A stretch of 55,054 bases of DNA from a virus (Duplodnaviria; Caudoviricetes): positions 1 to 55,054 of IMG/VR virus record IMGVR_UViG_3300044846_002992; one strand, written 5' to 3'. Positions within the stretch are counted from its first letter, which is position 1; the number at the start of each line of letters is the position of its first letter. The notes beneath the pieces are model-generated. The model worked only from the letters and a program-made list of their open reading frames with translations. It did no database searches and had not been told where the DNA came from. Shown here in pieces: positions 4,886 to 43,412 of this stretch. The translations under genes and the position numbers were made by a program.

Positions 4886-4946
4886 AAAGACAGAGTTTCT
4901 CAAAAAAGCTGGATTTGCCCACAAGCCCAGACAGCATCCCTCTCCT

Positions 4947-6842
4947 ATGACCAATCCCGAAGAATTCTACTCCTTCTCAACCGTCCTCGATACTGTAGGA
5001 TCACGCATTGACGAGCTAGTCAGCTACCTACTGCCTGCTGCCCGCAAGCAAGCTGGCTGCTACCGCGTAGGAGGCATTGACGGCTCTCCTGGCTCCTCCC
5101 TCTCCATCTCCACCAAGCCCTCCAATGCTGGCTGCTACTACGACCACAACGGAGGCGACAGCGGCAACGCTATTGGCCTCTGGGCGCACGTCAAAGGCCT
5201 AGACTACCAAGCAGCAGGCCGCGACCTCGCTCGCTTCCTAGGAGTGGCTCCAGAGCCCCGCATGCACATGCCCAAGCGGCGCAACCCTCCCAAGATTGTC
5301 CGAGAGGAGCGAGGACTTACCATGACCTGTGGCGGGCGAGAAGTGCATGTAGGCCCCCTCAACGCCAAAAGCATCAACTACGCCCTGTCACGCGGCATCA
5401 CCGAAGCCACCCTTAGACTCGCAAAATGCACCTCCACCGACACCCACATTGTATTCCCCCACTTCGATGAAGAAGACAAAGCAGTTTTGCTTAAAGCTTG
5501 GTCCTGTGACGGGCGGAAGCATATGTTCTCGAACGATGATCCTGTTCCAACCCTATTCGGCAAAAACATGGTTGACCCACTCAAGTCGGGATCGACCCTA
5601 ATCATCACGGAGGGGCAGTGGGACGCTCTGACATGGCAGCAGCTAGGCTATCCAGCCGTCTCCATCCCTTCAGGAGTCAGTAACGATGAGTGGATTGGTG
5701 AAGACTGGTCGTTCCTCAATTGCTTCTCCCAGATTTACCTCGATTTTGATGACGACCCACCCGGCCAAGAAGCCGAGCTGAAAGCCAAAGTGAGGCTGGG
5801 TTACGACAGGTGCCGCTCGATCCGCTATCGCTTCAAAGACGCCAACGCTGCGCTTGTGGCGGGCGCTGAGGACGTTCTCCGAGAAGCCTTCAAGCATGCC
5901 AAAGAGGCCCCTGTAGAGCGCATTGTCAAAGCCTCTGACATCAAAGACAAGGTGAAGGATAGGCTCAACCGGACCAACATGCAGGCCGGAACCCCGTTTT
6001 TCCTGAGGAGCGTTGAATTTGAATTTCGCCCCTACGAAATCACGCTTTGGTTCGGAATCACGGGTCACGGCAAATCCTCCATTCTCTCCAATCAAATCTG
6101 CTATGCTGCCTCCTTGGGTAAAATGGCGATGGTGGCATCCTTCGAGCAGGCCACGCCAATGACGGTGGCGGCAATGCTTTCGCAGTTTACCTCGGATGCA
6201 CAAATTGGCTCCAGTCCTGACTTTGACGAAGCCTTTGATGCCCTAACCTCTCGAGTGATGTTCTTTGACTCGATGCTTCGCGCCAACCCGGATGAACTCA
6301 TCGCCACGATGACCATTGCCCACAAGCAGTTGGGCATTGATGAATTTGTCATCGACAACATCATGACGCTGGAAGTGGACAGACAGGACAACACTGCCCA
6401 AGCGGCTGTCGCCGACAGGTTTCGGGTTTTTGCTGCTCAGTTCCCAGTTCACATTCATCTGGTTGCCCACCCCCGGAAGCCCCCAGCAAACGAGGCTTCA
6501 AAGCCCCCCTCCATCGCGGACATCATGGGCGCTTCAGAATGGAGCGGCATGGCTCACAACGTCATCTGCGTATGGCGTGACGTAGCCAAAACGCAGCGCC
6601 TCTCAGAGATGCGAGACGAGCAAATGGATGCTGCTGAAATCATGGCGTTCGATGAAAGCTGCCCTGATGGCAAGGCCTTCTGGCGAAAGCAGCGCGACTC
6701 AGGCGAGCTGCCAATGGTGTCTTATCGCTTTTGCAAAAAGACCAAACGCGCGTGGAAAACACCCGATGATCTCATGCCCCTGTGGTTCCCTGAGGATCAT
6801 CAATTTGGCGGCGAAACAATCTCCACAGAGGAGCAAGGCTGA
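4947..6842 (+). CDS. primase-helicase (TOPRIM + DnaB/SF4, Twinkle/T7 gp4-like)
   Basis: TOPRIM motifs IITEGQWDAL and YLDFDDDPPGQ, then KDAN; Walker A GITGHGKSS, Walker B FVIDNI, and HLVAHPRK. Confidence 0.95.
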   Translation: MTNPEEFYSFSTVLDTVGSRIDELVSYLLPAARKQAGCYRVGGIDGSPGSSLSISTKPSNAGCYYDHNGGDSGNAIGLWAHVKGLDYQAAGRDLARFLGVAPEPRMHMPKRRNPPKIVREERGLTMTCGGREVHVGPLNAKSINYALSRGITEATLRLAKCTSTDTHIVFPHFDEEDKAVLLKAWSCDGRKHMFSNDDPVPTLFGKNMVDPLKSGSTLIITEGQWDALTWQQLGYPAVSIPSGVSNDEWIGEDWSFLNCFSQIYLDFDDDPPGQEAELKAKVRLGYDRCRSIRYRFKDANAALVAGAEDVLREAFKHAKEAPVERIVKASDIKDKVKDRLNRTNMQAGTPFFLRSVEFEFRPYEITLWFGITGHGKSSILSNQICYAASLGKMAMVASFEQATPMTVAAMLSQFTSDAQIGSSPDFDEAFDALTSRVMFFDSMLRANPDELIATMTIAHKQLGIDEFVIDNIMTLEVDRQDNTAQAAVADRFRVFAAQFPVHIHLVAHPRKPPANEASKPPSIADIMGASEWSGMAHNVICVWRDVAKTQRLSEMRDEQMDAAEIMAFDESCPDGKAFWRKQRDSGELPMVSYRFCKKTKRAWKTPDDLMPLWFPEDHQFGGETISTEEQG

Positions 6843-6951
6843 GCTTCCAATGGCCCCAAAGTGGCTGATGGAGGTTTTTAGTTTTCCCTCCATCGGGACT
6901 TTGACAGTTGCGCCCTCCAACTGGTAATTGGAAGAGAGGGCAAATTTTCAA

Positions 6952-7075
6952 GCATAACGTCAAAGTGGAGGGACCGGCGGGGAGCACCGCGACGCCGAAG
7001 CCAACCAACTCACCCCAATGAAAAATCGAACTAACAACGCCGTTACGCCGGTTCCTCTCTCACGACTTGTTGTGC
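6952..7075 (+). mobile_element. attC-like recombination site 1
   Basis: Inverse core GCATAAC ... core GTTGTGC; imperfect inverted repeat agtggagggaccggcg / cgccggttcctctct; CGACTT precedes GTT. Confidence 0.75.
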
Positions 7076-7311
7076 CTTGGCCGGATGAGGATGACTATGA
7101 TGGCGAAACCGCTCAACTCTACCGCACCGTCGATCAAGACTGGAGCTTCCAGTTCCCCGGTTGGAAATGGGTGGCAAACCAGATCAACGCCGAATACGGA
7201 AACAACCGCACCGCTGCCGCCTGCCGTTCAAAATGGATACGATGGGTGAAGGCTCAATTCATTCGGCACAACGATGAGTCCATCCACGGCGGAAAAGGAA
7301 GCTTAAAATGA
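7018..7311 (+). CDS. cassette ORF 1, small Myb/HTH-like hypothetical protein
   Basis: WKWVANQINAEYGNNRTAAACRSKW resembles the Myb/SANT 'W..IA.......RT...C..KW' pattern; ATG lies in the attC1 loop. Confidence 0.65.
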   Translation: MKNRTNNAVTPVPLSRLVVPWPDEDDYDGETAQLYRTVDQDWSFQFPGWKWVANQINAEYGNNRTAAACRSKWIRWVKAQFIRHNDESIHGGKGSLK

Positions 7312-7354
7312 AAGAAGGACGTTGCCCGCCGTTGGATGAGACGACTTGTTGCGC
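7266..7354 (+). mobile_element. attC-like recombination site 2
   Basis: GCACAAC (exact reverse complement of the attC1 core GTTGTGC) ... catccacggcgg / ccgccgttggatg ... CGACTT GTTGCGC. Confidence 0.8.
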
Positions 7355-7607
7355 ATTGGTGGATGCGCTAAGTGAGGTGCTGCCGCAACATGCGATGGCC
7401 TGCGTCTCAAGGCTCAATCTCCATGATAAGCCATGGTCGTTCGACGTGACCGACGACGGCGGGCCACTCATAACGCCGGAAAGTTGCAGATGTTCCGGCG
7501 GCTCCATGAGGTATCTCAGGGCACTGCTGCCTGATGGACACCCGAAAGGATTTTCGCGCAACGAAAAGGGCATGGCGCGGGGAGCGCATGAGAAGCCCAT
7601 GGAATAA
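7308..7607 (+). CDS. cassette ORF 2, hypothetical protein
   Basis: ATGA overlap inside the attC2 loop; stop lies inside the attC3 loop. Confidence 0.55.
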   Translation: MKEGRCPPLDETTCCALVDALSEVLPQHAMACVSRLNLHDKPWSFDVTDDGGPLITPESCRCSGGSMRYLRALLPDGHPKGFSRNEKGMARGAHEKPME

Positions 7608-7650
7608 AATGGGACGACTCTCCCCGTCGACCATCATCGACTTGTTCTCT
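7556..7650 (+). mobile_element. attC-like recombination site 3
   Basis: GCGCAAC (exact reverse complement of the attC2 core GTTGCGC) ... atggcgcggggag / ctccccgtcgaccat ... CGACTT GTTCTCT. Confidence 0.8.
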
Positions 7651-7666
7651 GAATCAGCCCAAATCC

Positions 7667-7963
7667 ATGAAAGACATCGAATCACAAGCTATCGAATATG
7701 CAGAAGCTCTGAACGACATTGCGGATGTTCTCGACATGCCCACTGGTGCGAAATCCGCCGAAATAGTGCAAGCTGCCCGCAACCGATGGTCGAACGGAAT
7801 CCATACGTGCCACGACAAATGCAGCCGCGAAAGGTGCGTTGAGCGCCGCAAAATGAGATCCATGCGGGAGGCGCTGGAATACATCGCCCATAGTGGACTG
7901 TCCGCGCGGCATCTTTCCGACCATGCCCGAGATCACCTTTTTGTCAACAAAACCAACTTATGA
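7667..7963 (+). CDS. hypothetical protein
   Basis: Contains HTCHDKC...C; ATGA overlap with the next gene. Confidence 0.65.
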   Translation: MKDIESQAIEYAEALNDIADVLDMPTGAKSAEIVQAARNRWSNGIHTCHDKCSRERCVERRKMRSMREALEYIAHSGLSARHLSDHARDHLFVNKTNL

Positions 7964-8250
7964 AAACAACCACAGCCCTAATCCTAGAAGACTCAGACTT
8001 CACCAAAGACAAAAATCTGAAGTTTGAAGCTTTTGAAGCAATGTGCCACGCAGAAATCGTAATTCGCGGATCGGCAGTAATCAAAAACAGACCCACTGGA
8101 GAAATCTCCGAGAAGGGCCCAGATATGTCTAAAGGCCCTGCCAAGCGCGTCCGCAGGGCAAGAACCCCAGAAGTGACCATCGAGCCTCTACAAGCAGCGA
8201 CAGGACCTCAAAGCGACACTTCACCAGAACCATCCGATCACGATGGCTAA
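7960..8250 (+). CDS. hypothetical protein
   Basis: Overlaps both neighbours; a palindrome copy lies just upstream. Confidence 0.65.
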   Translation: MKTTTALILEDSDFTKDKNLKFEAFEAMCHAEIVIRGSAVIKNRPTGEISEKGPDMSKGPAKRVRRARTPEVTIEPLQAATGPQSDTSPEPSDHDG

Positions 8251-8932
8251 TCCAATCCGAATCACCACCATGCACCCCGAGTTCACATCCTTTCCTAAGC
8301 TGGCCCGCCTAAACCGCGAAATCTGGATCACTGAAAAAATCGACGGCACCAACGCTCAGGTTCGTATCATCAAACCCGAGGTCGCCGTCTCTGAATTTTC
8401 TGGATGGGTTGCCCACGTTGACGATCATCTCATCTGGGCTGGAAGCCGCAACCGCTGGGTGACGCCGGAACAAGACAATCACGGCTGGGCTCGCTGGGTA
8501 AAAGAAAACGCAGAAGAGCTGGTCAAGCTTGGCTACGGCTCCCATTTTGGGGAGTGGTGGGGAAGCGGAATTAATCGCGGCTACGGCCTGACCAAGGGCG
8601 AAAAGCACTTCAGCCTTTTCAACACTCTGCGCTGGAGCCCTCCGGGACAGCCCACAATTCAGTCAGGAGAGCGCTGGGACGACAAGTCCAAGGTGATGAC
8701 GCCGATCTTCACGCAAGAGGCTCCGGCCTGCTGTGGAGTGGTTCCTGTGCTCTATCGCGGGCTGTTTGAAACCGAATGCGTCAACATGGCGCTGAGCGAG
8801 CTCAAAGCGGTAGGCAGCATTGCATCTCCGGGATACATGAACCCAGAAGGAGTTGTTGTCTTTCACACAGCCGCCAACTCGGCGTTCAAAGTGACCATCA
8901 AGGACGACGAGAAACCCAAAGGCGCGGCCTGA
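8243..8932 (+). CDS. RNA ligase (Rnl2-like adenylation domain)
   Basis: Nucleotidyltransferase motifs I TEKIDGTNA, III FGEWWG, IIIa FSLFN, IV EGVVV and V FKV. Confidence 0.88.
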   Translation: MANPIRITTMHPEFTSFPKLARLNREIWITEKIDGTNAQVRIIKPEVAVSEFSGWVAHVDDHLIWAGSRNRWVTPEQDNHGWARWVKENAEELVKLGYGSHFGEWWGSGINRGYGLTKGEKHFSLFNTLRWSPPGQPTIQSGERWDDKSKVMTPIFTQEAPACCGVVPVLYRGLFETECVNMALSELKAVGSIASPGYMNPEGVVVFHTAANSAFKVTIKDDEKPKGAA

Positions 8933-8935
8933 GCA

Positions 8936-9481
8936 TCACCCTTCCCTCGTCCAGCAGCCCGACCAAAACGGAAACGCGTCCGCGCTCCCAAGCTGATCGC
9001 GAGGAACCCACACTTTGAGCGGCAAATAGCACCCGCAAGCTCCGCAAGCCTCGGGCGCGTCCACCTTCTCGGGTGGATGAATGGTGAGCTTCAAAGCGTC
9101 CTTGCACGTCGGGCACCCCGCCACCGAAGAGCGAAGCGGGCACCCTCTGCAAATGGAAGCTCTGCGATGCGCCTCCTGCGGAGCCACCAAAGAGCTGTCC
9201 ACTACGCGCTTCGCCATGAAGCGGAGGAAATTAAGAGCCGATCCCACCGACACCAAGCGTCGCTTCGCGCCGCCGGGAGCACGCTTGACGTGCTTGGGGT
9301 AGGCAGCAGCCAGCGCAGTCCAAACGAGCGATTCCCAGTTGATTGGGAGCCTTAGGTCGTTCTGGTCGTAATGACGCCTAAATTGATTGAAAAGCTGACC
9401 TGTGGTTTTGCCCGATAGGCGAACGCCCTCGACGGTGACGCTGAATTTACTTGGCACAGGCCCGTTTGTGGTCCATTTCAT
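8936..9481 (-). CDS. Cys-rich (probable Zn-binding) hypothetical protein
   Basis: RASICRGCP..CPTC..CGACGCYL..K..CW; fits exactly between the ligase stop and the tRNA. Confidence 0.75.
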   Translation of the reverse strand: MKWTTNGPVPSKFSVTVEGVRLSGKTTGQLFNQFRRHYDQNDLRLPINWESLVWTALAAAYPKHVKRAPGGAKRRLVSVGSALNFLRFMAKRVVDSSLVAPQEAHRRASICRGCPLRSSVAGCPTCKDALKLTIHPPEKVDAPEACGACGCYLPLKVWVPRDQLGSADAFPFWSGCWTREG

Positions 9482-9520
9482 GCGCGTCAGCCTACCTCCT
9501 GGTTTTGTTGACGCAAGAAC

Positions 9521-10214: not shown

Positions 10215-11231
10215 GGCCCGTGTCGCGCAATGTCCTCGCGAACGATGCGAATTCCAAATTCGTTTCGTGTGAACGGGCCGCCACCCTCCAGTCCTTCAAG
10301 GCGTAGCCCACCCCCTCGGTGAGGGGTCTCGCGGTGCAAACCCGCGTGGAGGATTGGAGTGTGGTGGAGGCGTCATAGCTTAGTGCAGAGCGTCGGGCAA
10401 ATAACCCGCATGAACGGAACGTAGCAAACTCCTGGCGCGAACGAAAACCACACAGACACCCCGGAAAGACGGGGCGAGACACATCCAGCGCCCTAAGAAA
10501 CAGGCTCGACCTGCCCAAAGGCTGGATTGCGGGCGGAGCGTCATGCCGTTACCGGACACCGTAACCGGACTATTTCCGGGAAATACTAGTCCAATCCCGA
10601 AAACTGGACCACAGCAGTATCTGTGGAGGCTAGTCCAGAATAGCCATACCTGCTGGGCTTGGCGGAGTCACCCGCCTATATCGTCCGGGATGAATCATCC
10701 GAGACCGCAGTGGCCAAACCTGCGAAACTAAAGGGCATCAATTTCCAATCCAATGAGAGAGCGGCGCGGAAGCCAAAGCACAGCAGGAGACGTATTCCAC
10801 CTGTCGCTTGAGACGCGCCTACAGTCGGTGATGCAACGCGCTTTAATCCGATGTCAGCCTGTGCAAGCGCGACTAGCAGGAGCCGTAGTAGCGCACGGCC
10901 TCTCTCACCCTTTCCAATGACACCTCAGCCTGCCGAGACCGTCCAGCCGGGGCGCGGAGCGCGCGCGTTAGGCGCATAATGCTCCCTCGCAAATGTCCGG
11001 AATCAGGGGCGTAGCGGGTTGGGGTGCCACCTTTCACACAATGACGCGTCATCGCAAAGGAGCGGGGCCCAGATTGACGACCAGCTCCATGAAGTTTGGC
11101 GTTAATTCCTTGAAACGGACAAACGCTGGGATGCACGAAACCCCAAGTGGGGCAGCGGTGGGGCCAAACAGCCCCCTTGAATAATTATGGGAAATAGCCG
11201 CCGGAGCCAGTAGCCGCTGGCGCGCGTCACC
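10215..11231 (+). ncRNA. about 1 kb array of structured, partly tRNA-like RNA units
   Basis: No credible ORF. Successive units are closed by terminal helices at 10215-10283, 10281-10367, 10370-10438, 10543-10738, 10754-10909, 10918-11031 and 11042-11231. Confidence 0.7.
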
Positions 11232-17254: not shown

Positions 17255-17937
17255 GCAACAAAGCAGCGCAACGCGCAAAGCGTCTTCAGAAAGCCATTGA
17301 AATTGGAGAGCAATCCCTCAAGCGCCTCAATCTCGACCGAAACAACCCGAAGCTCGTGAGGCAGGCCGTAATGTCCATGAGGCTGTGTCACGCTCTCTCT
17401 CAGCCAATCAACGTGAAAATTAGCGAATCAATGGAGTGGTTCAAAGAGAGCGCCGAAATAGAAAAAGAGGCAGAAGTCGGAATTGGCATCCCAACCCCAT
17501 CAAAGGTGCTGTTTCTCGATGTGGACGGGGTTCTTAATCGCTGCGGAAAATCCAATCAGGGCCTGGAAACAGACAAAGTTGAACTGCTTGCTCAAATCGT
17601 TCGGGAAGCCAATCCTTCAATTGTCGTCTCTTCCACATGGCGAATTTTCGAGCATCAAATAAACAGGCTGAAAACAGTGCTGCAAAGCATTGAGGCCAAC
17701 TTCATTGGAACCACTCCATGGCATAATGGTAAAACTGAAGGGGGTCTCTACATAGCCAAGGCGCGAGGAAACGAAATCCAGGAATGGATGGACGAAAATG
17801 GAACTCCTGAGAAGTTTGTCATTCTTGATGATGATTCAGACATGCTCCACCTCAAGCCTCACCTAATCAAAACTGAGTCATTTGTGGGTCTCACGTCAGA
17901 AATCGCCAAATCGGTAATTGAGGCGCTGAACGCATAA
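17251..17937 (+). CDS. HAD-superfamily phosphatase (Swiss-army-knife RNA-repair HAD type)
   Basis: VLFLDVDGVLN, IVVSSTWR, RGNEIQEW and FVILDD; start at ATG 17251 (ATGA overlap). Confidence 0.85.
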   Translation: MSNKAAQRAKRLQKAIEIGEQSLKRLNLDRNNPKLVRQAVMSMRLCHALSQPINVKISESMEWFKESAEIEKEAEVGIGIPTPSKVLFLDVDGVLNRCGKSNQGLETDKVELLAQIVREANPSIVVSSTWRIFEHQINRLKTVLQSIEANFIGTTPWHNGKTEGGLYIAKARGNEIQEWMDENGTPEKFVILDDDSDMLHLKPHLIKTESFVGLTSEIAKSVIEALNA

Positions 17938-18012
17938 GCTCATGGACGCCGCCCCTAAATCTCCACATCGCCAGGGACGCTCCTCGGCGTTCCATGAAGC
18001 GACTTGTTCTGC
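17925..18012 (+). mobile_element. attC-like recombination site 4
   Basis: GCTGAAC ... tcatggacgccg / cggcgttccatga ... CGACTT GTTCTGC. Confidence 0.75.
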
Positions 18013-18199
18013 TCTTGTGGACTTCCTTATTGCAGAGACTTCCGAGGACGCTGTGTTTTGCTTCATCTCTGCAATCTCCTGCTTTGGAATCACGGATAGG
18101 GAAGACGCTATCGCCGCAATGGAGAAAGACCACGACACCCGCAACTGGGCTGTCATCACGGCAAACCTGATCCCCGAGCCTTATGTGCAGAACAGCTAG
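17942..18199 (+). CDS. cassette ORF 3, hypothetical protein
   Basis: ATG lies within the attC4 stem; the stop falls just after the inverse core of attC5. Confidence 0.55.
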   Translation: MDAAPKSPHRQGRSSAFHEATCSALVDFLIAETSEDAVFCFISAISCFGITDREDAIAAMEKDHDTRNWAVITANLIPEPYVQNS

Positions 18200-18238
18200 C
18201 TCATCCACTGCTAGGTCGGATGCGGCGACCTGTTCTAT
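18187..18238 (+). mobile_element. attC-like recombination site 5 (short)
   Basis: GCAGAAC (exact reverse complement of the attC4 core GTTCTGC) ... catcc / ggatg ... CGACCT GTTCTAT. Confidence 0.7.
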
Positions 18239-18267: not shown

Positions 18268-21200
18268 TCAGCGCCTCCACTGATTGTCCCAAATTTGGGC
18301 GCCTGTTTTGTTGACAAAACGCTTGTTCAAATCTTGCTGGAGTTCCCGCGGAGTGAATGGCATGCCTCCCAAAAGGAGAAGTCCCATATCCCGGACGGAA
18401 ACTTCATCAGGGGCGTTGCTGATCACCGTGAGAGGCTCCACGATATTCGCCACGCCGTCCATGACCAGAGAGTAGCGAGCCAGATCGTTCATCAGGGATG
18501 AAGTGGCGGTGTAGATGGCATTGTCCCATCCGCTACCATCACTGATGTCGGTGTTTTCCAAGGTGAAGCCAGCACGCTCAAAGTGAGCCGGGCTTCCTGG
18601 AATCAGAGGATCAACAACCTTGTTCATGGCGTATTGCCCAAATGCTCCACCGACCGCAGTGGAGGCCACAAGGCCAATGTTGCCATAGGGAACCTGCTTT
18701 AGAACCTCCATGCCCAATTCGACAGTGATCTGGTGCAGGTCCTGATTACTCTTAGACTCGTCAAACCCTCCAACTGAATCGGACCAGCCGATGGGACGCG
18801 TGCCACCCAGGGTTAGCGCAACCCACTTCATCATAGTGCGCTCGTCTGGGTTTTTCGGATCAATCCCGAAGAAGCTTGCATACAAATCCTCGCGCTCTTC
18901 CTCGTCCATTCCTGTGAGCATGCCGATTCCCTGTGCGATAAGGTATGACGCCACTTTGTATTTCACAAGGCGGAACAGGACGTTCTGAATGACATTCGAC
19001 GCAAGGAGGCGCTTGCCAACCGCGCGAGCCTGGGCATCTCCATTCATGATCATGCTGTAGGCTGCCATGCTGTTGCCAGCAACATGGACCTGGTGGTTCG
19101 AAAGCTGCATCGCGCCAAGCCTCAAGATCTCAGCCCCGATGGTCTCCCGTTGCTGGAACGCGCCAGCCTTCTTTGACTGGTCGGCGGTAGCGGCCATGTC
19201 TGCCACGTCCCGTTCGGAGCGGCGCAGGACAGAGGATGTGACCTCTTCCATGCTGAAGGAGGGCTCTAGGAACTCCTTGACTGTCAGTTTCGCGGGCATG
19301 CCAGCCGCCTCACGGGCAGCATTGATGTGCCTCACGACAGAATCTATGAAGATTGTATTGGCGATGGTCTTTTCCGCCCCGCCGATCACTGTCTGGACCA
19401 TGCGACTACCTGCCTCCATGGCAAGACTGCCAGCTCTCCCCACAGTGTCCGTCACGGGGGATAGGATGTTGGTGGCTCTTCCGGCAAGACGGCCCCGTGA
19501 ACGCATGCCTTTCGACGGGCGCACGTAGTTGATGTCGTCAAGGTAGTCGCGTTCGCCATTGGCCTTTCGAAGCTGCACGTTGATTCCAATCTCGGCGACG
19601 CGACGGTCAATGCGAGAAGCAAGGTTGTCAGGTAGCGCGGTTCCGGTCAAGGCGCGCAGAGGCGCTCCAAGGCCGTTCATGGCCCTGTGTAGTAAGTAGT
19701 CAGCGTAAAGAGCCATGTATCCCACGTTCTTGCCAACGCCTCCATGCACCATTGCGTAGGTGATGACTGCTGGCAGGGTTTGGGTATAGAGCTGGGAAAC
19801 AGAATTGAGAGCCTTCACGATGCCGAGCTGGTGAAGCTTCTGGACAAATCCCATCGCGCGATGCTTCGGTCCCTTGGAGGCCATCTCCTTGCGCAAGATT
19901 TGTTGCCCCATGTGGGCAATTGCGTTCGCTGCGTCAGTGAGCTGGTCTTCCTTGCCAGGAAGAAGAGTGGAGGCGTTCTCGTCGATGTAGCCATAGTCAT
20001 CAGTGCCCTTGGCCAAAACTCCATCGTGAATGTGGGTGGTGCCAACGGTGGCACGGAAAGCCTCGTAGGCCGGAGTGACGTTCTGCCTAAAGAGCATATC
20101 CTCCGCGATGCGCAGAGGCACCGTCAGGCCGTTGGTGTCGAGCATGTGCATCTCTCCGTGCTTCGGGTTGCGGACAGGCGACTGCATGAATGCAGCGCGT
20201 CCAAGCCCGAGCCGCTCATGGAGTGGAGCAATCTGCTCTGAGGTTGAGTGGGTCCTGCCGAAGGTTTGCCACATCATGGCCATTGGAGTTACTCCCTCCA
20301 TAAATTTGGTGTCCACACCGGAAAGTCTGGCTTGCTCGACATACGACTCACGCAGGTAGTTCAGGGTTTCGTTGACAAAAGTGCCCCATTGCAGAGAGCG
20401 TGGAGGCAGCGTGGCCTGCAGGCTCAGAAGCTCAGCATCTACATCAAAGCTGGACCCGGTGGTCATCCTGGCAAGGGGATCACGAAACGTCTTTTCAAGC
20501 TCTTGAACAATAACCCTCTGCTCAAGCAGGCGATAGGTCTCCTCGGTCATGTAGGCCTTCAGCTCGGAGGACTTCTGGCGAAGCTTCTCGATGCTCATGG
20601 AGAGAAGATCAGTCCTGGTGGTAGCTCCGGTAGTAGGAGGAAGCCCGGCAAGGATTGCCTCCTCAATACCATCCAGCGCCTGCAGGAACATCTTCTGCAT
20701 GGTCTTGACACGATCCTGAACCTTCGAGCCTGAAGGGCCAGATTGGATGTATCCACGCATCGCAAAGAACATATATCCAAGAGACGACTCCCACAGAACG
20801 TCAGGCCTGCTGGACGCCCTGGTAAAGGCGCGCTTGAAGCGACCACCAAAAATTTTGTTCATCTTGCGGTTGAACAACTTGGATACCTCATTGAGTTGAG
20901 CGCGATGATTATTGATGCCAGTCTTACCAGCAGGACCGTAGGACAGCACGCCAATCATGTCCTCGGCAGACTCAATGGCTGCAAACTTCTTGGCGAACAA
21001 CTTCCTCATGGCTCCGTCATGGTTCATCAGCATGGAAAACACGCCACCCTCAGCAAACGGCTTTTCTTTTTCCGTCCAGATGCGGGATGGAAGATAGCCA
21101 GACTCGATCAGAGCGGCAGACTGATTACTGCCAATCTGGGCCTCAGCAAGGTTGGCAACGACGTCAATCTTGCGAACAGTGCTGATTGTTGGGCTGCCCA

Positions 21201-24200
21201 TCTCACGCATCAGGGCTTCAGCCTGCACCTGCACCGAGCCGGAAAGCATATTGCCCTTCAGGGCCGCGATGATAGAAGCAATGCGAAGCTCCGTCGAAGA
21301 GCGGACAGACGCTTTTGGATCGAAGGCCCCAAGCTCTGCAGCAGTGTTTCCAATACGAGATGTGGCGCGATGGAAGCCAAGAATCGGATTGAGCGAGACC
21401 ATGTAGGCAGAAGCGTCGCGCTTCGACTGTGGATCAATGTGCGCCGCAGTGCGGAGGTTGGCGGAGCCATCAGCATTGACCTTGAGTGGAGCCCGTGGAG
21501 CGGCTGGCTTGGAGTCCACCGGACCAATCTGGTTATCCACAACGTGGTAAGGCTCACCAGTGAGTATGGTCATGGTATCAGCCACAATCTCGGCCTGTTC
21601 GTCAGCCGTGCGGGCCGCGACGTGGTTTGCAGCAAATTTGTCCAGAAGGCTGGAGTTGGCGATGTTCCTAGTATAGTTCTCCTCCCAAACCTGGGCTCTC
21701 CAGAGATGGTCACGGCGAAGGGCCTCAACGTCGTCTGCAGCTCCGAAGTAACGAAGCTGGCTCGGAAGATCCATGCCGCGTGGGGCGAACACCTTCTGTT
21801 TGCGCCTGATATATTTCTGCTCTTCGCGGAGGGCGTCCGAAAGAAGCCTCTCGGCCTTGCCGCGTTTATGGCGCTCGCGCTCCTGAAGGATGTTACGGGA
21901 CAGACTGAGTGCAATCTGGCGCTTGGTATTGGTGCTTAAGCCTTGAACGGCGGCGTGATTGGCTGACTCCATCTCGCTCAGAGTGCGGAACACGTCCATT
22001 ACCAAGGCGTTGGGAGTGTCTGGAGTGTTGTCCACGCGTGCCTCCCGGTCAGAGAGGCGCTGGGCCAGAATGCTCGTAAGCGCTTGCGCCTGCTGCTCAA
22101 ACGGGAACACGGACGCATGGATGGATGCCGCGATTGCCTGACGCTTCTCATCAGGAGACATCGTCTTGCTGATCAGGGCACTCACAATTTGGGGAAGCGC
22201 TTCATCAGGGATTTGGATTTCCCTATTCGGCTCCACACCGGAGAACTCCAGCGAGCTCAGGCCATTGGATGGGTCGTATGTCGCCAAGCCTTCCGCGGCC
22301 TCTAGGGCGGCAGCGGCTTCTGCGGTGCGCCTCACGCCAGTTGTGGTGGACATGCGGGTGGCGTGCGCCTGGATGCTTGCAATGGAAGCCAGGGCGTCAT
22401 CCAGAGAGTCCAACGCGTTGTTGCCCATGCGGAGCTCTGTAGACATCAGGCGCATTCCCATGCGCTCACCAACGAAGGTTGTGTAGGCATCGACAACTTG
22501 GTTGAACTTGCTTCTGGCCCTGCCCATCGCCATCACCGCGCGGAACAACGACTCATTTGCAGACTCCTTGGTTGCAAGGTTTTCAGCAGCCTCGCCTGCG
22601 GCTCGGGCGGCTTGCGCCTCCTGATGAAGGCGTTTGAAATTGGCTTCAGCCTTGGACAGCAGCTTGGAAACGCGGCGAGACTCGGCGGCGATTGCGGCCT
22701 GTTTCGACTCGATAATGACAGGGGTTCGGGTCAGGCCATTGCCGGGACTGGTTGCTGCAATCCTGTCACGCAGGGCATCCACTCCAAAAGCCTTGGCAAG
22801 CTGGGATAAGCTGGTCTCAATTTGCACGTCGGTCATGACGTGAGGAGCCTTCCCTCCGTTCATGACGGCGACGTAAGCATCAAACGCGGTCTCGTCTTTG
22901 ACGCTTGGGTTGCGCTGGTAGGTAATAGAGTTCGCCGCCCATTCATCAGCAGCAACACGCTGCCTGCTCTGACGGGCCTTGTAACGGCCTCTGGCTTCGT
23001 TCAGGCGGGTCTCAAGGACGTTCAGACGCTCCATGTCGGCCTTGCGACGCGCGGACTCAGCACGGGGATTCTGGATGGCAGGAGACGCAATCCTGGACAG
23101 CACTCGGGCATTAACCCTCGGGGCTTGCACGAGACGCAGGGAACGAAGCAGATCGCCACTCCGAGACTCAAATTGCTCGATCACAGAGTTGGTCATTGCA
23201 TCCACCAGCTCGCTGGCACCATCGAAGTGGGACTTAAGGAGAGGGCCCGCATCAGCCCAGTGGCCTTCTGCGATGGTCAGGTATTTCCCGCGGCCTAACA
23301 CCTCGCGAAACTGCTCCATATCACGAGCCGCCAACAAGTCCTTCCTGACCTCGTCCAGCTCGCTGATGGCATCAGAGACCACCTTAGCCTCAGCCATTGC
23401 GTTCGCGGCGGAAGTCTCCATCTCCGCGATTTCGCGCATGGCCTTGTTCGCCTCGCGCCTGATCATCGTCTGCTGCCAGGTGAGGCTGTCCACCTCCTGC
23501 TCGACTGGCTGAATGTCAAGATGACTGAAGCCATGGTTGGCCACTTGATGGAACAGCTCCTCTTGCGCCTTCCTAAAGACCTCCCCAGTCGAAAGGGCGC
23601 TACCAGTGGCGAGACCAGGCACAGTCAGGACATACACTCCGTTTTCATCAATGGTCCACTTTGTTGGAAAAGTGGCAGGCTTTTGAATGGGCTGGCGAAA
23701 AAGCTTTGCCCCTTTCACGGCGGCATCGTGAGCTGCTGTTTTCTTGAGCCTGTATCCGACGATGCGCGAGTAGGGAAGTCCAGTGATCATACCGGCCTTG
23801 TCCCACTGATCGCGACCACGCTCATCTTGCCCAATTCGCATCTCAATTCTCACGGGCTCCACCTCATCTCCCGTGTATTCCCTGCCAGTTTTGTCAACAA
23901 AAATAGGCCTGCCTTGGGCGTCGTGCTTCTGAAGCTTGCGCATCACAACACGGCCCTGTTCCTGACGCTCCCGCTTGATCTGCGGGAGGTTGGCGGCAAT
24001 CTCCAAACGGGCCTTGCCCCAGGCGTTCGTGACTTCGACGGCACCGTCGGCCTGCGCAATTGGGAATGCTCCCTTCTTGAGCCTGCCTTCATACCAGTTT
24101 TGCCCGGAGCCTCCCATCTGCGAAAACGACCACTGCTTGTAATGAGCGGCGACGTCCTCCTGCCATTCCGTGGTAAACGGAACGACGCTCAGGAAGTAGC

Positions 24201-27200
24201 TGCGCAGGCGCTCTGCGGCCTCTCCAGACATGGCGAGGAGCGACTCCACCGAAGGCGAGGCGATGCCAGCGCCGTTCCAGCCACCGCGGTCACTTTGGTC
24301 TCCCAAAATCCAATCGCGTAAGTCACCATCGGGAAGAGCCGCCAGCATCTGCCGGGCCTCGAAAGAAGTAAGCTTGGTTTCGCGGTTGGTACCAACAAGA
24401 GCCCCAAGGCCACGCGGAGCCTTGGCGTGCTTCTCATCCACAAATGGATTGCTCTGGTCCGCAGAATCCCACGATGGATTCACATTATCCAGGACAGAAT
24501 GCAGCAGACTGTTGGCCCACTCAGCGCGGATGGACATCACCGGAGTGCCGGATGGCGTTCCCACAATGGACATGCGGCGCTGATAACCTTCCTCAGTCTC
24601 ACCGTCAGTGACAACCTCCTCAGCAAACTCATTGGCAAGCGCGTCAAACTCCTCGTCTCCAAACTGAACATTCTCCATGCCCTTGCCGCGGTCAGCAAGG
24701 CTTCTTGAAATACGTTCCTCGGTCTCGATAAACTTGTCGTAACCAGGGAAGCGTGCGTCATCAATAAGCTCGCCACGGGCCGCTACAGCCTCAGGACGGA
24801 TGGGGCCGATGCCAAGCGGCATCACATTCATGGAAAGTGACAAGGCAAGCTTGGCGTCGTTATTGGTCATCGCCAGCGCAATGACGCCAGCGGCGCTCTC
24901 GGGAGAAAGACGTCCAGCCATCGAAATTGAGACAGAAGGATCAAACCACGGGGCAGCAGGATGGTTTCCGATATTGCGGGCGGCGGCAATAGCCGAGCGC
25001 TTTGCCTTCTCGGTCTCGCGGGCTGCAACAAGGTAGATTTTAGCGTCCTCCTCCTCAGTGATGGTCTTTCCGACCAGTTCGTAATCAGATTCCAGACGTT
25101 CACGGATGGCCTGCGCCAAGGAGTCGGGGTTGTTGCGAGGGCCGCGAATGGCTTCCGTGATTCGCCTGGCTTCTTTCACCACATCAACAGCCCCATTTTC
25201 ATGCAGCCAAACCAGCATGGCCTCAAGAGCGGCCACGGAGTCTTCAGGCGTCACTTGGACAGCGGAGCCGTATGGGAACGCCAAGACGGGAGCCTGCTTG
25301 TCAGGAATGAACAGGACGGTTGGAATACGGGCACCAGTTTCTTGAGTAACAAGCCCCTGCATGCCCATCTTTTCAAGCTGGGTATTGTCAATTTTGTCTG
25401 TTGCGCCACGAACCTCTTCGGACTTGTGGCGGTCCTGGCGACGATCATCACGCAGCAACAACTCGCGCTGGGCTGGAGCGCCAGTGCGTCTGGCAACACC
25501 ATCGCCAGCAACAACGCTGCCTCGATCCTGAGAACTAGTCCAGGGCACGTCACCGTCGATCACCGCGATGTTCCTGATCATCATTGCAACCGCGCTCACA
25601 ACGTGCCCGCTGGCCTGGTCGTCGCCACCATGGAAAGCGGCGGGATTGATTGGCATTGTAGCACTTGCGTAGAACTGGACATGCCCGCCACGCTCGCGCA
25701 GAGCCTCAATGGTGGCAGCCGCTTCAGGGTGGGATGCCTGAAGATTGGCAAGCGCACCGTCGAAAGTGTTTCGTTCACCCCGAGAATCAAACAGGTTCTT
25801 TCCAAAACGTGTGATCAGCCCGCGTTGTTTATGCTCTTCGTGACCCTGGGCAAGTCTGAACATGATTTCATTATCGAGCGCGTCAGTGTCATATCCTTCA
25901 CCAAGCGCGAAGCGTGGGTCATTGACGAAGGAGTAGACGTGCTCGCGGTTGCCTCCAAGCAGGGCGCTGAGGGCCCTTGCGCGCCAGCGGCCAAGGGACA
26001 CGGCCTGCATGGCCTCACGGTTCTGCTCGGCCCGAACACGCTCTGCGGTCAAGTCGCCCTCTTCCATCCGACTGGCTGTATCACGGTCTGCGGAGGTTGT
26101 AGCGTAGTAGTTGCCGACAGCCTCATCGTTCTCTGGGTCAACGCCATGACGCAAAAGCGCGGCCCTTTCCAGGGAGATGCTCTCGAACTGCTTCATCAGC
26201 TCAACTGGCTCGTCTGGACGAATCAGGGAAATCATTACTGAATTCTGCAATGGGCCAAACTCCGCATCCTTGGGTCGCGCGGCTTCCTGCGTCGATTGAG
26301 CCCGGACATCAATCTCAAACTCGATTTTGCTCATCTCGTCAGGATCTACAGGGAACTCGGCCCTGCGGCTGGCGGAGCGGCGCATGCTGTCGCGCCTGTC
26401 GTTGGCCTGTCTGATGGCTGACTTGTAGATGGTATTGACCAAGGAGACTCCATTGTAGAGTTCCCAGGCACGGAAAGTCAGATTGGTCGGGCGCTCTGCA
26501 AGCGCCTTGGCTTGAGCAGCAAAGACTGAAGCCTGCTCAATACCAGCCAGCAGACGGTCGTATGCGCCACGGGATTTCTTGAGGCGGTCGCGAAGAGGCA
26601 CGCCATCAATCACAAGGTCTTTTGTTGACGCAAGAAACTGAACCAGCCTGGGCGCGAGAATGGAGTTGGCAAGTCCAGCGGGCGTGAGGCCGTCACGATG
26701 ACTCAAGAGCGGATGCGTCTGATCTGCAGAGACGTCGTGCATCGTTGATACAAACTGGGCGGCAGCGCTCACCAAGTCATCAAGGAACCCGGAGTCGAGC
26801 ATCTTCGCCAGGTTCTCTTCGGGGCCAACTTCGAAATTGATTTCGCCGCTTGGGTCTGCAAGAAGCGCAAGATCGGGAGGGGTGATGATCAGCTCTGGAG
26901 CGAACGGGGAGCGATTGTAGGTATCGACCGCAGTGATAGGTAGGGAGAATCCAGCCGAGTTTACGGCCTGCGTATTGACGCCCGGATGACCGCGCCAAGC
27001 GGCCTCCGTCAGCGACTCATAAAGCTTGCGAGTGATAGCGATGGCATTACCCTTCATCACGCTATTGCGCTCTGACGAGTCCATCTTCTCTCCGATGTCA
27101 TTGATGGACGCGCGGGAGAAGGGATCGGGATTGACACCAAGGATCTCGAACGAGCCATCCACGCCAGACATGACGTCATTTGCAACAGCCTCAACCACGA

Positions 27201-30200
27201 CACTCATCATGCTCTCGGGCTGTGACTTCATCTTGCCGCCTTGCATTCCGACAGCAATGTCATAGGACGAGCCTTCACCAGAGCTGATGGTCATGGTGCC
27301 ATACGGGGAATCAATCTGGAAGCTTGTCAAAAATCCAGTTGTTGGAATGAGCGGGTTGGCAGAGTCGGCCATATCGCCACCAGAGAATGCAATCGGGCCG
27401 ATATGCACTGGCATCAGGTCAATCTTTGCTGAGTGCCTGAAGTCGAGTCCACTCCATGAGGTTGACGGGGCCCACAGGGAGCGCGGAGTGTCGCCGCCCA
27501 TGGTGATGTATGCCAGCTCTGCTCTGAAATTACGCAGGCGAGCGATGGCGTCATGAGATCCGGCAGCAGACGCAAGGGCGCTGATGGTCCTGCTGGCTGC
27601 AGTGGGGTCTTTCAGAGAGTCGTTGATCAAGGATCCGGCACGAGACGGGTCGCGCATGAAGAGATCAAGAAGTCCGTCCAGGCCATTGATTGAACTAACA
27701 GCATTAACTCTGGCCATTGCCAGATCAAAACGCTTGGCCTCGATCTGACGCACCAAACTCTGTAGTGCTTTGATATGAGGAGTGTCGGAGGTGGACTTGA
27801 GGATTGGCTGCAGGAGCGCGTTGACGTCGGCCAGTCGGTCATCAACCAGCTTTTCAGCAGCGAGGTAGGCCTCACGACTCAGCGAAAACTCGGCCATGTC
27901 CTTCTTGAACTGGTCAAGAGCCTCTGTCACCGCAGCACTGGCAACAGCTTGTTCCGCCCGGATGGCATCCAGCGCTGCTTCGAGCTCATCTGGAGATAGG
28001 TCTGGATCGACGCTGGTGTCGGTGAGCTTGTCAACCAGTTCACGCGATACGGAGAGAGCTCTGTCTACCGCTCCAGCACTTGGGGCGACTGGCTCGGCCA
28101 TCATGGAGAAGGCCTTCTTTGCGTCCTGGTGGGCCGTCAGGGCTTTCGAAAGAGCGATGTCGCCAGTGGATGCCCGCTTCAGCAGGGAGGCCTCCAGCTC
28201 GTCAATAGAGGCCACAATCTCACCTACGGCAGAGTCACGACTGAAGATGGTGCCGTTGATGGCAGCAATCAAATCGGCAGCAGGCATTCCAGCCTCGCTC
28301 TCAATAGCCAACTCGATTTGTTGACGCAAGTTGGCCGTGTTTGAGACAACCGCGTCAACCAGCTTGGTCACGGGACGGTCATTCTCGTCGCGTGCGTCAC
28401 GCCGGGAGCGCTGCAGGCCGAAAAGCGGCTCGCCAAGATTACGAAGGCGGAGGAGCGAGGACAGGTCGCGCTCTGCTTCCACGAGGCGCTCAATAAACTC
28501 AGGGCGTCCGTTGTCGTTCAAAACTTCAAGGGCCTCGGAGAGCTCCGCATCATTGATCCCTGGAGCTGGCTCAAGACGACCGCCCACAAGGGACACCGGC
28601 ATCAGATCGGGATCGCCGGAGGCGGCGCGCATCCGACCAATCACACCGCGGACAGATGCCTGAGCCGCAGACACACGAGCGCCAGCGCGAGCAAACTTAT
28701 GAATGCCGCGCAAAGTCACAACCTGTTGCCTGGAGGCCTCGTTGCCAACTCCCTGCACATCAGGAGAAAGAAATCCCTGCTCGCTCACCACTTTGTTGAG
28801 GCGTTCAAGCATGATGCCAATTTCGTTCGGGAGGCCATTGGCCACGCGATGCGCCTCAAGCATGTTCTTCACGGCGCGGACGAGACGGTTAGCCATCTCG
28901 CGCAAGCGCTGCAGAAAGCCCCGTGAGCCCTCAGTGGCGTTGTCGGCGTAGTAGCCAAAGTCAGCCAGCACAGAGCCGCTGGTCTTGCCTGAAACAAGCC
29001 TCTGACGGAACTGTGCCATCCACTCGTGAGAGGATGCAACAAGCTCTTCGAAAGAGATACCCCTCACTGCCTCATCGACAGAATTGAACGGAGTCGCACC
29101 GAATCCAGCGCGACGCCAGTTGATGGCAGTAAGCCACGACTTTGCCAGACGTGGATTAGACAAAGACTGGTTGGTCAGATTTTCGGCCAAATCCATCATC
29201 TCGTCGTCCGTGAACTCGGAGACGCTGGCAATGTGGACGAGCTCTTCGTATACAATCTGGGCCAAATACTCGGCGAAGTCCTGAACCGCATAGTATTGCC
29301 CAACCTTGTTGCTTGGGGCGATGCGGTTGTATTTGCTGGCCAGCGAACGTGCCACGTTCTCTGGATTCACCTCGATCATCAGCGTGCCATCAGCAGATGG
29401 ATTTACCTGCATGGTAACGTCTGGATCATCGGTCCAGGTGACATGCTTAGCCGCAAACTCGTCAGAAACCAGCGACCCAACCTGCGCCAAAACCATCTCT
29501 TTTGTCAACGCAATGACCTCCGGGGAAACGGTGCCTTTACCTGCGGTGATTGATTCCACGATTGTGGCGGCAATCTTCTCGGCCTTCTCGGTGATGTGCC
29601 TGCGAGGAGTGTAGCGACTGATTGCCGAGAACACCTTGGAACCAAACGTGTTGGCATCAAACTGACCGGAAGTTCCGACCTGTGAAGTCACCTCGGCCAG
29701 GTCGTAGCGGATACGCCCGTCTTTACCAACCTCACGATTCACGACGATGTGCGCGCTCTCAACCTTGTTGTCCTTGTTGACGCCGAGCACCAAACCTCCC
29801 ACCTCAGCAGTGACATCCAGATCTCCTTCAGCGCCGGAATACATGACAGAGCGTCCCGAGTCCTTGCCGTGCTTCTTGCTGGCAGTCAGGAGCTTGGACT
29901 TGTCAGAGGACGAGAGCACGACAGAGGCGTCTGTGGCGACGGTTGCCACTGGGGCAGTGGTGGCGGTCTTGAGACCTCCTTTTGCAGCGGCGCGCTCACG
30001 ACGTAGACGAGCAAACCTCTCCTCGATGGTCTCATTGGCTGGAGGAGCCTCTGCTGGAGGGGTTGCCTCCACGGCGGGCTCGGGCTCTGGAGCCGCCTCC
30101 ACCTCTGGGGCAGAAGCGGGCTCCGACTCTTGTGTTACAGGTTCCGGCATTTGCCCTTCGGCTTGCCCTTGCCCTTCGATTTCGTCTTCATCGGGTTGTG

Positions 30201-42401: not shown

Positions 42402-43412
42402 TCAACCCTTCATGCGAGCGTGCATCGAGCCGACGAGGGACAAGCCCTCCCAGATGGAGACATTCATGTGCAGGAATTCTCCAGAGCGAGAGACAAACTG
42501 GACTGCATAGCCATGACTCCATCCGGTTGGGTCGGAATGCCGCCAAAGCGGCTGTCGTTGACAGAGGCATCCGGGATTCCATGCTTTCACCAAGCCGACG
42601 CCAGGCATCACCATGGAAGCGGAGTCCTCGCGGTGAGTGTGGGCATACACCACATTACCCGCAGTTCGGCCCACGGCTGAGGACGCAGCGTTCTTGCCGG
42701 ACCCAAGCTCGTGAACGAAAAACACCTTCCCCAGCTTAATCCAGCCAGGAGGCAGGCCGGGAATTGTTTCTTCGGACCTACGATAGAAATTGATGCCTCG
42801 CTCCTTCAGGCGGAGCAGTTTGTCAGGAGCGAGCATCTGGCGCAAAAACTCAGCATCCCTGCTGTGACGCATAGTTTGATCCACAATCCACCGCTCGACC
42901 CGATCTTCATGATTGCCCTCAAGGTAGTGGATGACGGCTCTGGGAGCGGCCTTCACCACCTCATCAAGAAACCAGTTCCCAGCAGCGATGTCATCCTGCC
43001 ATGAGTAGGCAGTTTGAGCCACGTATCCGAGCGTGTGATGGGCTGCGAGAAAGCCGCCGCATTCCACAATGTCGCCAAGTAGGACAATTTCATCAGGGTC
43101 CCACTTCTTAAGGTCGGCAAGGAAGGCATCCACTGCTGGCTTGTCCATCATGCTTCCATGGACATCGGCGCAGATGACGCGAACGAGGTCTTCCCGATTG
43201 CAACTTGCGGGCTGAGGGGATGGGGGGATCGGGAACTTGGCGTTGCCCAGCGCCTCAAACTCCTGAAGGAGGTCATCCCTGTCCTTCGTTACAGCGGCTA
43301 GTTCCCGCTTTGTTTTCGCGAGGAGGGCTCGGGCCTTCGTCACTTCCGAAATGGCTTCATCAGAGCTGACGCGCTTTCCGGTCAAATCGTGTCCTGTGTT
43401 TGGTGCGCTCAT
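42402..43412 (-). CDS. calcineurin-like metallophosphoesterase with an N-terminal coiled coil
   Basis: ADVHG, LLGDIVE, EGNHE, VHE and AHTHR. Confidence 0.88.
   Translation of the reverse strand: MSAPNTGHDLTGKRVSSDEAISEVTKARALLAKTKRELAAVTKDRDDLLQEFEALGNAKFPIPPSPQPASCNREDLVRVICADVHGSMMDKPAVDAFLADLKKWDPDEIVLLGDIVECGGFLAAHHTLGYVAQTAYSWQDDIAAGNWFLDEVVKAAPRAVIHYLEGNHEDRVERWIVDQTMRHSRDAEFLRQMLAPDKLLRLKERGINFYRRSEETIPGLPPGWIKLGKVFFVHELGSGKNAASSAVGRTAGNVVYAHTHREDSASMVMPGVGLVKAWNPGCLCQRQPLWRHSDPTGWSHGYAVQFVSRSGEFLHMNVSIWEGLSLVGSMHARMKG

Follow-up and report, generated by a model that had tools for sequence, protein, structure and literature searches.

Two clusters of probable integron attC-type sites with bottom-strand genes in an uncultivated freshwater phage

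Results

attC-type sites in the window

The 55,054-nucleotide stretch analyzed here, referred to as the window (IMG/VR record IMGVR_UViG_3300044846_002992), is a 55-kb record of an uncultivated lake-water phage with an estimated completeness of about one half. Between its primase/helicase and RNA ligase genes sit small open reading frames (ORFs) and three imperfect inverted repeats resembling the attC recombination sites of integrons. These are probably genuine attC-type sites, forming with a second group two clusters of attC sites lacking integrases (CALIN) whose cassettes are coded on the attC bottom strand and would be served by an integron integrase (IntI) of the host. Comparison with related phages and with bacterial chromosomes demonstrates the attC structure, its covariation, its kinship with chromosomal attC sites, the strand used for coding, the locking of codon phase, and cassette-precise reshuffling with breaks at AAC.

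Known attC sites are 57–141 bp long and are recombined as the bottom strand, between the A and C of AAC. The hairpin consists of an R box, an unpaired central spacer (usually 5–6 nt per arm), extrahelical bases and a variable terminal structure, and conservation is limited to the AAC/GTT triplets (PMC5371416, PMC5027507). Each of the three repeats in the window ends with CGACTT followed by GTT (GTT at 7069, 7348 and 7644), and the lengths of 124, 89 and 95 bp given in an earlier note on this DNA were found as claimed. For an independent assessment of these positions, a covariance model (R1) was made in the bottom-strand reading from 27 attC sites adjoining IntI genes on three Verrucomicrobial chromosomes. 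R1 stands in for the attC model of IntegronFinder, and its E-values are rough, the calibration being short. In the window it matches five sites at full length, all on the + strand, at 12.1–35.2 bits; the next best match scores 4.3 bits. Its matches to the three repeats reproduce the coordinates of the earlier note exactly.

Site 2 (7266–7354, + strand, 89 nt; R″ GCACAAC, R′ GTTGCGC) is the sole match under default filters (35.2 bits, E = 3.7e-7 window-wide). None of 200 shuffles is as stable as its DNA fold (z = −3.3 on the + strand and −3.6 on the − strand), which reads from the AAC end as a 4-nt internal loop, 3 bp, a 1-nt bulge, 6 bp, a bulged T and a distal stem. The loop holds a Shine-Dalgarno-like GGAAG, the ATG at 7308 and the stop codon of the preceding ORF. 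Site 1, the first in the cluster (6952–7075, + strand, 124 nt; R″ GCATAAC at 6952–6958, R′ GTTGTGC at 7069–7075), carries the ATG at 7018 in its loop and is matched at full length with 24.7 bits (E = 7e-6). Its 12-nt arms (6968–6979 and 7046–7057) are complementary at 92%, and its initial 29 nt share 96.6% identity with an attC site in a related phage (G003). The GCATAAC box of site 1 is also the box at the end of a 728-nt cassette in G003. No GTTATGC partner for this box lies upstream within the window, so the left edge of the cluster resembles either a cassette cut short or an illegitimate junction. Site 3, the last in the cluster (7556–7650, + strand, 95 nt; R″ GCGCAAC, R′ GTTCTCT), gives a weak match of 15.7 bits once filters are turned off (E = 0.0016 over 2.1 kb) and a fold with z = −0.8. 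Its AGAGAAC partner is absent downstream.

A second small cluster (17925–18238), missed by the earlier note, contains sites 4 and 5. Site 4 (17925–18012, + strand, 88 nt; R″ GCTGAAC, R′ GTTCTGC) scores 32.2 bits (E = 4.5e-8) and contains the ATG at 17942; its arms covary with those of site 2 (CATGGA/TCCATG versus CATCCA/TGGATG). Site 5 (18187–18238, + strand, 52 nt; R″ GCAGAAC, R′ GTTCTAT), which has CGACCT before GTT, is matched at 12.1 bits (E = 0.007 in 1.1 kb). Sites 1–4 fall inside the known length range of attC, and site 5 is slightly short. The AAC and GTT triplets are present in all five sites.

By the definition of Cury et al. (2016, PMC4889954), a CALIN needs two or more attC sites on the same strand, separated by less than 4 kb, and no integron integrase in their vicinity. 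In the window, three sites fall in a stretch shorter than 700 nt and two in one shorter than 320 nt; every site is on the + strand, and the record has no tyrosine recombinase (PF00589) anywhere. A complete integron would have an intI gene, an attI site and a Pc promoter beside its array. The window is not one, since PF00589 is absent both from it and from 10 related viral records. The earlier note had likewise seen no integrase, and any integrase must act in trans.

Complementarity of cassette ends

The first and last seven nucleotides of each ORF body in the main cluster are exact reverse complements: GTTGTGC (7069–7075) with GCACAAC (7266–7272), and GTTGCGC (7348–7354) with GCGCAAC (7556–7562). 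Both pairs named in the earlier note were verified. Across the window, the + strand has 36 inverted GTTNNNN-type pairs, a number at which 7-mers by themselves are insignificant. The 9-mer CGACTTGTT occurs exactly four times in the window, always on the + strand and three times within 600 nt, and a control pattern for it occurs once in forward and never in reverse orientation. Considered as a conserved protein motif, CGACTTGTT was ruled out because all three codon phases are used. When the window and three relatives were taken together, 9 of 10 CGACTTGTT sites had an exact partner no more than 900 nt away, for which the estimated chance is ∼5% per site.

Consecutive pairs of model-defined sites were compared at the four variable bases, which match 4/4 in 11 of 19 pairs. 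At a spacing of 400 nt or less the count is 11 of 12; most of the wider pairs include a site missed by the model. The two ends within one site match 4/4 in only 1 of 43 cases. A match between cassette ends that exceeds the match within sites is the classical sign of crossover location. In the array context, the four variable R-box positions are unpaired in 11–19 of 39 sites. A transposon with terminal inverted repeats was rejected as an explanation of the repeats because these vary between cassettes, as were invertible segments because every ORF is co-oriented.

Putative cassette units were delimited using the AAC breakpoints in relatives together with the exact end complementarity. Unit 1 (6958–7271, + strand) would open with the C of AA^C in site 1 and close with the AA of the AAC that follows, and comprises site 1 and the body of the first ORF (7069–7272 with its 7-mer ends, + strand). 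Unit 2 (7272–7561, + strand) would comprise site 2 and the body of the second ORF (7348–7562 with its 7-mer ends, + strand).

Arrays in related phages

The same element is arrayed in about 20 related viral contigs, with up to eight or more cassettes. To find these, the viral collection was scanned with the conserved 3′ arm (six loci, three genuine) and with the conserved 5′ arm (29 stretches, ∼20 genuine). The other three loci of the 3′-arm pattern are one AT-rich chance sequence, and about nine of the 29 5′-arm stretches look like chance. Cassettes were chained from exact-partner pairs 40–160 nt apart, and removal of eight false chains and two duplicates left 56 cassettes. G002, a complete genome of 76 kb that has terminal repeats, carries seven cassettes in a row, and G003 has eight or more.

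Thirty-two unique phage junctions share one fold. From the AAC end, an R stem of 5–8 bp closed by AAC/GTT is followed by an internal loop of ∼4×4 nt (the central spacer, 4–5 nt per arm), 3 bp, a one-base bulge on the 3′ arm, 5–6 bp, a bulged T on the same arm and a distal stem. This stem carries a ∼30–70-nt loop, which houses the stop codon of one gene and the start codon of the next. Sites in relatives are 57–132 nt long, with the addition of one composite of 188 nt (L022, reverse strand 10537–10724, equal to L014), whose two AAC-ending boxes may represent back-to-back sites or an empty cassette. AAC and GTT are invariant in all 39 phage sites aligned to the model. In these sites 98% of inner-helix cells are paired, and all 13 pairs have changes on both sides. 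Covariation scores 0.535, compared with 0.162 in shuffles (none of 500 reaches 0.535) and at most 0.112 with a slid partner. Note that the alignment was fitted to the model, so these pairing and covariation counts favor the structure.

R1 was then applied to 40 sources (490 kb), giving 38 matches at E ≤ 0.01 and none in 14 loci classed as chance or as junction-less relatives. Five further records gave 20 additional matches at E ≤ 0.05. A few junctions recognized by eye in L026, L045 and L046 were missed by R1 at threshold. An 18-nt junction pattern gave at least 120 matches in genome contigs, and among the matches listed one is genuine (L089) and the rest are chance. The pattern also matches a coding motif (…W-M-x-x-N-G/A-E-S-I-H-G…) in unrelated bacterial genes (L066, L080 and L122), which is a source of false matches.

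Kinship with chromosomal attC sites

Chromosomal arrays of Verrucomicrobiia (L193, L195 and L199) have the layout AAC, ∼5 unpaired nt, 3 bp, bulge, 6 bp, bulged T and stem. The phage sites have this layout nucleotide for nucleotide, including a G(C/A)CT(T/G) spacer before GTT, and follow the same rule of end complementarity. As a positive control, the end-complementarity scanner recovered the long arrays adjoining the three chromosomal integrases. The chromosomal arrays differ in that they adjoin an integrase and in that their ORFs (58 of 60) are on the top strand and contained within the cassette.

One of the related viral contigs is also binned in a metagenome-assembled genome (MAG) of Luteolibacter, and of 301 genomes in the class to which this MAG belongs, 93 have a match to the IntI family TIGR02249 above the curated cut-off; the MAG itself does not. 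Many IntI genes in these genomes (G012–G311) lie at the ends of contigs, which would follow if assemblies are interrupted by cassette arrays.

Coding strand and codon phase

The recombinogenic bottom strand of attC is recognized by extrahelical bases opposite AAC, the first and last of them a 6-bp stem apart, with the distal T conserved (Nivina et al. 2016, PMC5027507). In the phage, the bulged bases are on the + strand, in the arm opposite AAC, as two bulges 5–6 bp apart of which the distal one is T. Sites 2 and 4 and most relatives conform to this geometry. Site 1 is a variant with, in our reading, one 3-nt bulge on the 3′ arm in place of two single bulges, and site 3 is irregular. In the chromosomal arrays, 58 of 60 cassettes have their ORF on the strand opposite to the one that corresponds to phage sense, consistent with the placement and orientation of the three integrase genes. 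The phage gene-sense strand is therefore the attC bottom strand, because the chromosomal ORFs oppose the model reading and the bulge geometry agrees.

Codon phase was assessed by asking whether a frame is open across the whole body. This measure was adopted in place of the longest open stretch, which separates the strands poorly (36 sense, 19 antisense and one tie among the 56 phage cassettes). The sense frame is open from GTT to AAC in 45 of the 56. AAC is in phase 0 in all 45, and the phase of GTT varies. Among chromosomal cassettes the body is open in none of 60 on the phage-sense-like strand and in five of 60 on the other.

The ORFs of the main cluster conform to this arrangement. ORF1 (97 aa, 7018–7311, + strand) starts in the loop of site 1 and stops in that of site 2. 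ORF2 (99 aa, 7308–7607, + strand) starts in the loop of site 2 and stops in that of site 3. The stop codon of ORF1 (7309–7311) overlaps the ATG of ORF2 (7308) as ATGA, so the proposal in the earlier note that frames cross the recombination points and are translationally coupled is upheld. The upstream ORF extends 3–102 nt into the following attC before its stop codon. All three start codons placed in attC loops by the earlier note (7018, 7308 and 7609) and the stop codons are at those positions. Use of ATG 7609 is doubtful: this codon, inside site 3, opens an alternative 77-aa frame, and the frame from ATG 7667 is more protein-like as judged by eye. This latter frame is a probable gene (98 aa, 7667–7963, + strand) with no family at E < 0.01 and no similarity to the neighbor of the ORF2 homologue in L010.

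ORF1 matches phrog_37969 (E = 4e-7); its Myb-like Pfam matches are weak and below cut-off. ORF2 has no family. Its homologue in L010 is 70% identical, with DNA homology confined to the body from GTT to AAC and with 7-mer ends that covary (GTTCTGC/GCAGAAC); the N-terminal extensions of the two proteins are unrelated. The N-terminal ∼31 aa of ORF2 resemble those of an 85-aa ORF in the second cluster (17942–18199, + strand), the body of which lies between GTTCTGC (18006) and GCAGAAC (18187). In the complete 34.6-kb genome G001 (L023 4440–4539, + strand; L010 3923–4249), the ORF2 homologue adjoins a YqaJ-like exonuclease and, by eye, a possible recombinase. G001 has at least one match to the attC model (34.2 bits) without the CGACTT motif. 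Cassette ORFs on the sense strand include a Dam methyltransferase (PF05869, 44 bits) and DUF5131 (PF07505, 265 bits), both well above the Pfam cut-offs.

Cassette exchange between phages and junctions in lake metagenomes

Modules that are 93–100% identical occupy different places in related phages, and the homology breaks exactly at AAC. Three adjacent units of L036 (1580–1914, 1905–2229 and 2225–2346) are 97.9%, 99.7% and 100% identical to stretches of G010, where they lie at three separate places and in two orientations; homology runs from AAC to AACG(C). Comparisons of G010 with L046 and with L026 give the same picture, and between G010 and L026 the flanking genes are ∼92% identical and the intervening cassettes differ. 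On sequence evidence, cassette exchange between phage genomes has happened repeatedly. The cassette-precise differences among relatives anticipated in the earlier note are thus present in several genomes, with breaks at AAC instead of at the predicted G^TT.

The window stretch is present in many lake-water runs. In contigs of four lake metagenomes (X11, X14, X17 and X21), summed depth over 7197–7450 is 3–10 fold above that of the flanks. Many lake contigs match only site 2 and diverge after its GTT (7348–7360) or in its loop (7280 and 7311–7318). Together, these two observations indicate that the junction is multi-copy in the community.

Gene setting

The left 18 kb of the window has its genes on the + strand and the whole right part on the − strand. 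The main cluster is flanked by the primase/helicase gene (4947–6842; phrog_239, E = 6e-74) and the RNA ligase gene (8243–8932; PF09414 and phrog_548). The 85-aa ORF of the second cluster is the last + strand gene before a single 4800-aa ORF (18268–32670, − strand) that begins directly after that cluster. In the closest relative by primase (L006, 65% identity), one 75-aa ORF (7866–8093) replaces the 2.1-kb stretch of five small genes in the window, so the interval that separates the conserved minus-strand gene from the primase is hypervariable. When 4900–9500 was compared by distant BLAST with 50,697 phage records, the matches were all to RNA ligases and none came from a relative of the cluster. 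No Rfam family was found in 6000–9000 at E ≤ 1. A promoter proposed by eye at 6901–6930 (TTGACA, 18 nt, TAATTG) was dropped after a scan of 6700–7800 gave no promoter-like site.

Ten large minus-strand ORFs (32667–53633) were scanned against PHROG at E ≤ 1e-5. Nine had no match, the tenth (42402–43412) matched only a metallo-phosphoesterase, and no capsid, portal, terminase or other structural or packaging family was found among them. Since no capsid, portal or terminase family is recognized, the structural module appears to be very divergent.

Discussion

Evidence against attC-type recombination, and alternative explanations

Several observations weigh against the interpretation of these clusters as phage CALIN recombined by a host integrase. 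PF00589 was found neither in the window nor in 10 other viral records, of which five are 96–100% complete, under conditions where 14 of 14 controls were positive; and in G011, the MAG with a related contig, nothing rises above the IntI cut-off. Since there is no integrase in the phages, the catalyst is purely one that we infer. The assignment of the host to the class Verrucomicrobiia, which we consider likely, rests on one binned contig and on the likeness of the attC sites, and a tblastn search with 45 cassette bodies against a few chromosomal loci gave one 25-aa match and no common cargo. The R′ boxes in the window (GTTGTGC, GTTGCGC, GTTCTCT, GTTCTGC and GTTCTAT) do not follow the RYYYAAC/GTTRRRY consensus; GTTAGGC or GTTAGAT is present in some relatives and in the chromosomal arrays. 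This looser consensus is the only published attC feature from which the phage element, read on the + strand, departs. In the folding that the earlier note proposed, sites 1 and 3 are no more stable than shuffles, and sites 3 and 5 are matched weakly by R1. Contigs of the four lake metagenomes contain no cassette-skipping joint, though contigs hide rare variants. Two pairs (ORF2 with its L010 homologue, and L035 with L046) have homology restricted to the body, starting at GTT in the first and 16 nt before GTT in the second, so that exchange at or near GTT also occurs or junctions were replaced later. Finally, viral identity rests on the classification by the collection, on the replication genes and on terminal repeats in relatives.

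These same body-only pairs bear on polarity. The earlier note placed the crossover at G^TT on the gene strand, with each attC belonging to the cassette upstream of it and lending a start codon to the one downstream. The two pairs agree with this, including the unrelated N-terminal extensions of ORF2 and its homologue, as do the many different continuations after 7348–7351 in lake contigs, although the four bases that follow GTT are cassette-specific, so that divergence there is to be expected in any case. Against this, the + strand bears the bulges opposite AAC and is the only strand matched by the model, codon phase is fixed at AAC (45/45) and variable at GTT, and every module pair with 97.9–100% identity breaks at AAC on both sides with the upstream attC traveling along. 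We regard a G^TT polarity as quite unlikely. The end complementarity is a footprint of recombination, as the earlier note had it, and the AAC breaks, the bulges and the phase place the crossover at AA^C.

The alternative that the sites are recombined by a non-integron enzyme (an unrecognized phage enzyme, a Xer-type recombinase of the host, or short-homology recombination) gains from the lack of IntI in 11 viral records and in G011, and from the conserved multi-copy junctions (the 3–10 fold depth over 7197–7450), which are a substrate for homologous exchange. It is unlikely all the same. Breaks at AAC occur even between unrelated attC types, for example after GCCGAACGC in L035 versus L036; the geometry is that of chromosomal attC sites beside IntI genes, and IntI is frequent in the candidate host class. 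Capture by the phage of an inert fragment of a host chromosomal integron, as in some Vibrio phages, would explain why the phage sites share their attC layout with chromosomal arrays of the likely host class, and such captures have been published (PMC9892861). What makes this very improbable is the opposite ORF strand (58 of 60 chromosomal cassettes), the frequency of site-spanning frames (45 of 56 versus 0–5 of 60), the phage-like cargo (Dam, DUF5131 and phrog_37969), and the spread of arrays over about 20 viral contigs, some of them complete genomes with terminal repeats, together with the movement of modules between phages. A purely translational role, with hairpins acting as mRNA structures that couple or tune translation and no DNA recombination, would suit the stop and start codons in loops, the ATGA overlaps and the presence of the structures on the sense strand, and no Rfam family matches. 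It leaves unexplained the exact complementarity of ends 140–850 nt apart alongside imperfect pairing within sites, the AAC breaks between genomes, and the fact that the sites match a model made from chromosomal DNA sites, the genes of which lie on the other strand. We give such an exclusive role very little credence; a translational role may well coexist with recombination.

Proposed organization of the cassettes

The phage attC sites are predicted to recombine with one another as single strands at AA^C (attC × attC), catalyzed during infection by an integron integrase of the host. In the proposed order, a cassette would begin with the C of AA^C and an unpaired spacer, continue with the 5′ arm, a loop bearing the ribosome site and the start codon, and the 3′ arm with its two bulged bases, and end with CTT, GTTNNNN, the ORF body and NNNNAA. 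The ORF would thus start in its own attC, pass its own R′ and the crossover, read AAC as an in-frame Asn codon, and stop a few codons into the attC of the following cassette, beside the start codon there; the following cassette would supply the last codons and the stop of the preceding ORF. Both excision and insertion would use the gene-sense strand. AAC invariably falls in frame as a codon, so that any cassette may follow any other, and because the stop is beside the incoming start codon, translation would be coupled. The suggestion in the earlier note that an attC provides initiation to the next incoming cassette does not agree with this order, in which each cassette brings its own upstream attC with a start codon.

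Comparison with known systems

Integron components are known from 21 of 10,705 sequenced phage genomes, with 17 phage CALINs, and IntI1 recombines five of six phage attC sites tested, temperate and virulent phages both being represented (Qi et al. 2023, PMC9892861). The clusters described here resemble those CALINs in having at least two attC sites on one strand, no integrase, co-oriented cassettes and DNA methyltransferase cargo. Unlike those CALINs as described, they have bottom-strand genes that span both recombination points and are phase-locked at AAC; and, in contrast to that survey, arrays are common, with demonstrable turnover, in one uncultivated group of freshwater phages. We found no mention of ORFs starting inside attC or on the bottom strand in main-text passages of that paper (supplementary tables aside), and no description of bottom-strand-coded phage cassettes or of attC-internal starts in the literature searched, subscription journals aside. 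Phage attC clusters are therefore already published, and the inverted, in-frame, phase-locked design is new.

The canonical cassette, with a top-strand ORF between the recombination points followed by attC, does not fit the phage cassettes. Since attC is defined by structure, synthetic attC sites can be written into almost any sequence, reading frames included (Nivina et al. 2020, PMC7439510). Those sites are engineered, whereas the phage sites are natural and their arms encode N- and C-terminal codons of many genes.

The PeSL elements (promoters with stem-loops) of T4-type phages were reportedly described by Arbiol et al. in 2010 as "mobile regulatory cassettes", with stem-loop repeats flanking small accessory genes and a proposed shuffling. 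These are promoter and stem-loop repeats that act through homologous recombination and are not known to have an AAC/GTT core, bulge geometry, end complementarity or integron kinship.

Implications

Integrons are seen as a bacterial device, and the mosaicism of phages is mostly ascribed to homologous or illegitimate recombination. The sites described here could give phages a defined site-specific route for exchanging single small genes, including anti-restriction methyltransferases. They also indicate that reading frames can occupy attC, which bears on the birth of cassettes, a long-open question in the integron field, and on attC-based engineering. A testable prediction is that, on infection, phage DNA is acted on by an integrase of the host, the gene-sense strand being the substrate. 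If this is true, these would be the first natural attC sites that serve as translated linkers and the first case of a virus parasitizing the integron machinery for genome plasticity. With a start codon and leader in its own attC, an open body and AAC in phase 0, each cassette would receive from any neighbor a stop codon and a coupled restart. We put at about even the chances that this freshwater phage lineage keeps a cassette pool of its own, distinct from that of its hosts, and reshuffles its early and accessory genes through host IntI by means of this plug-and-play coding design.

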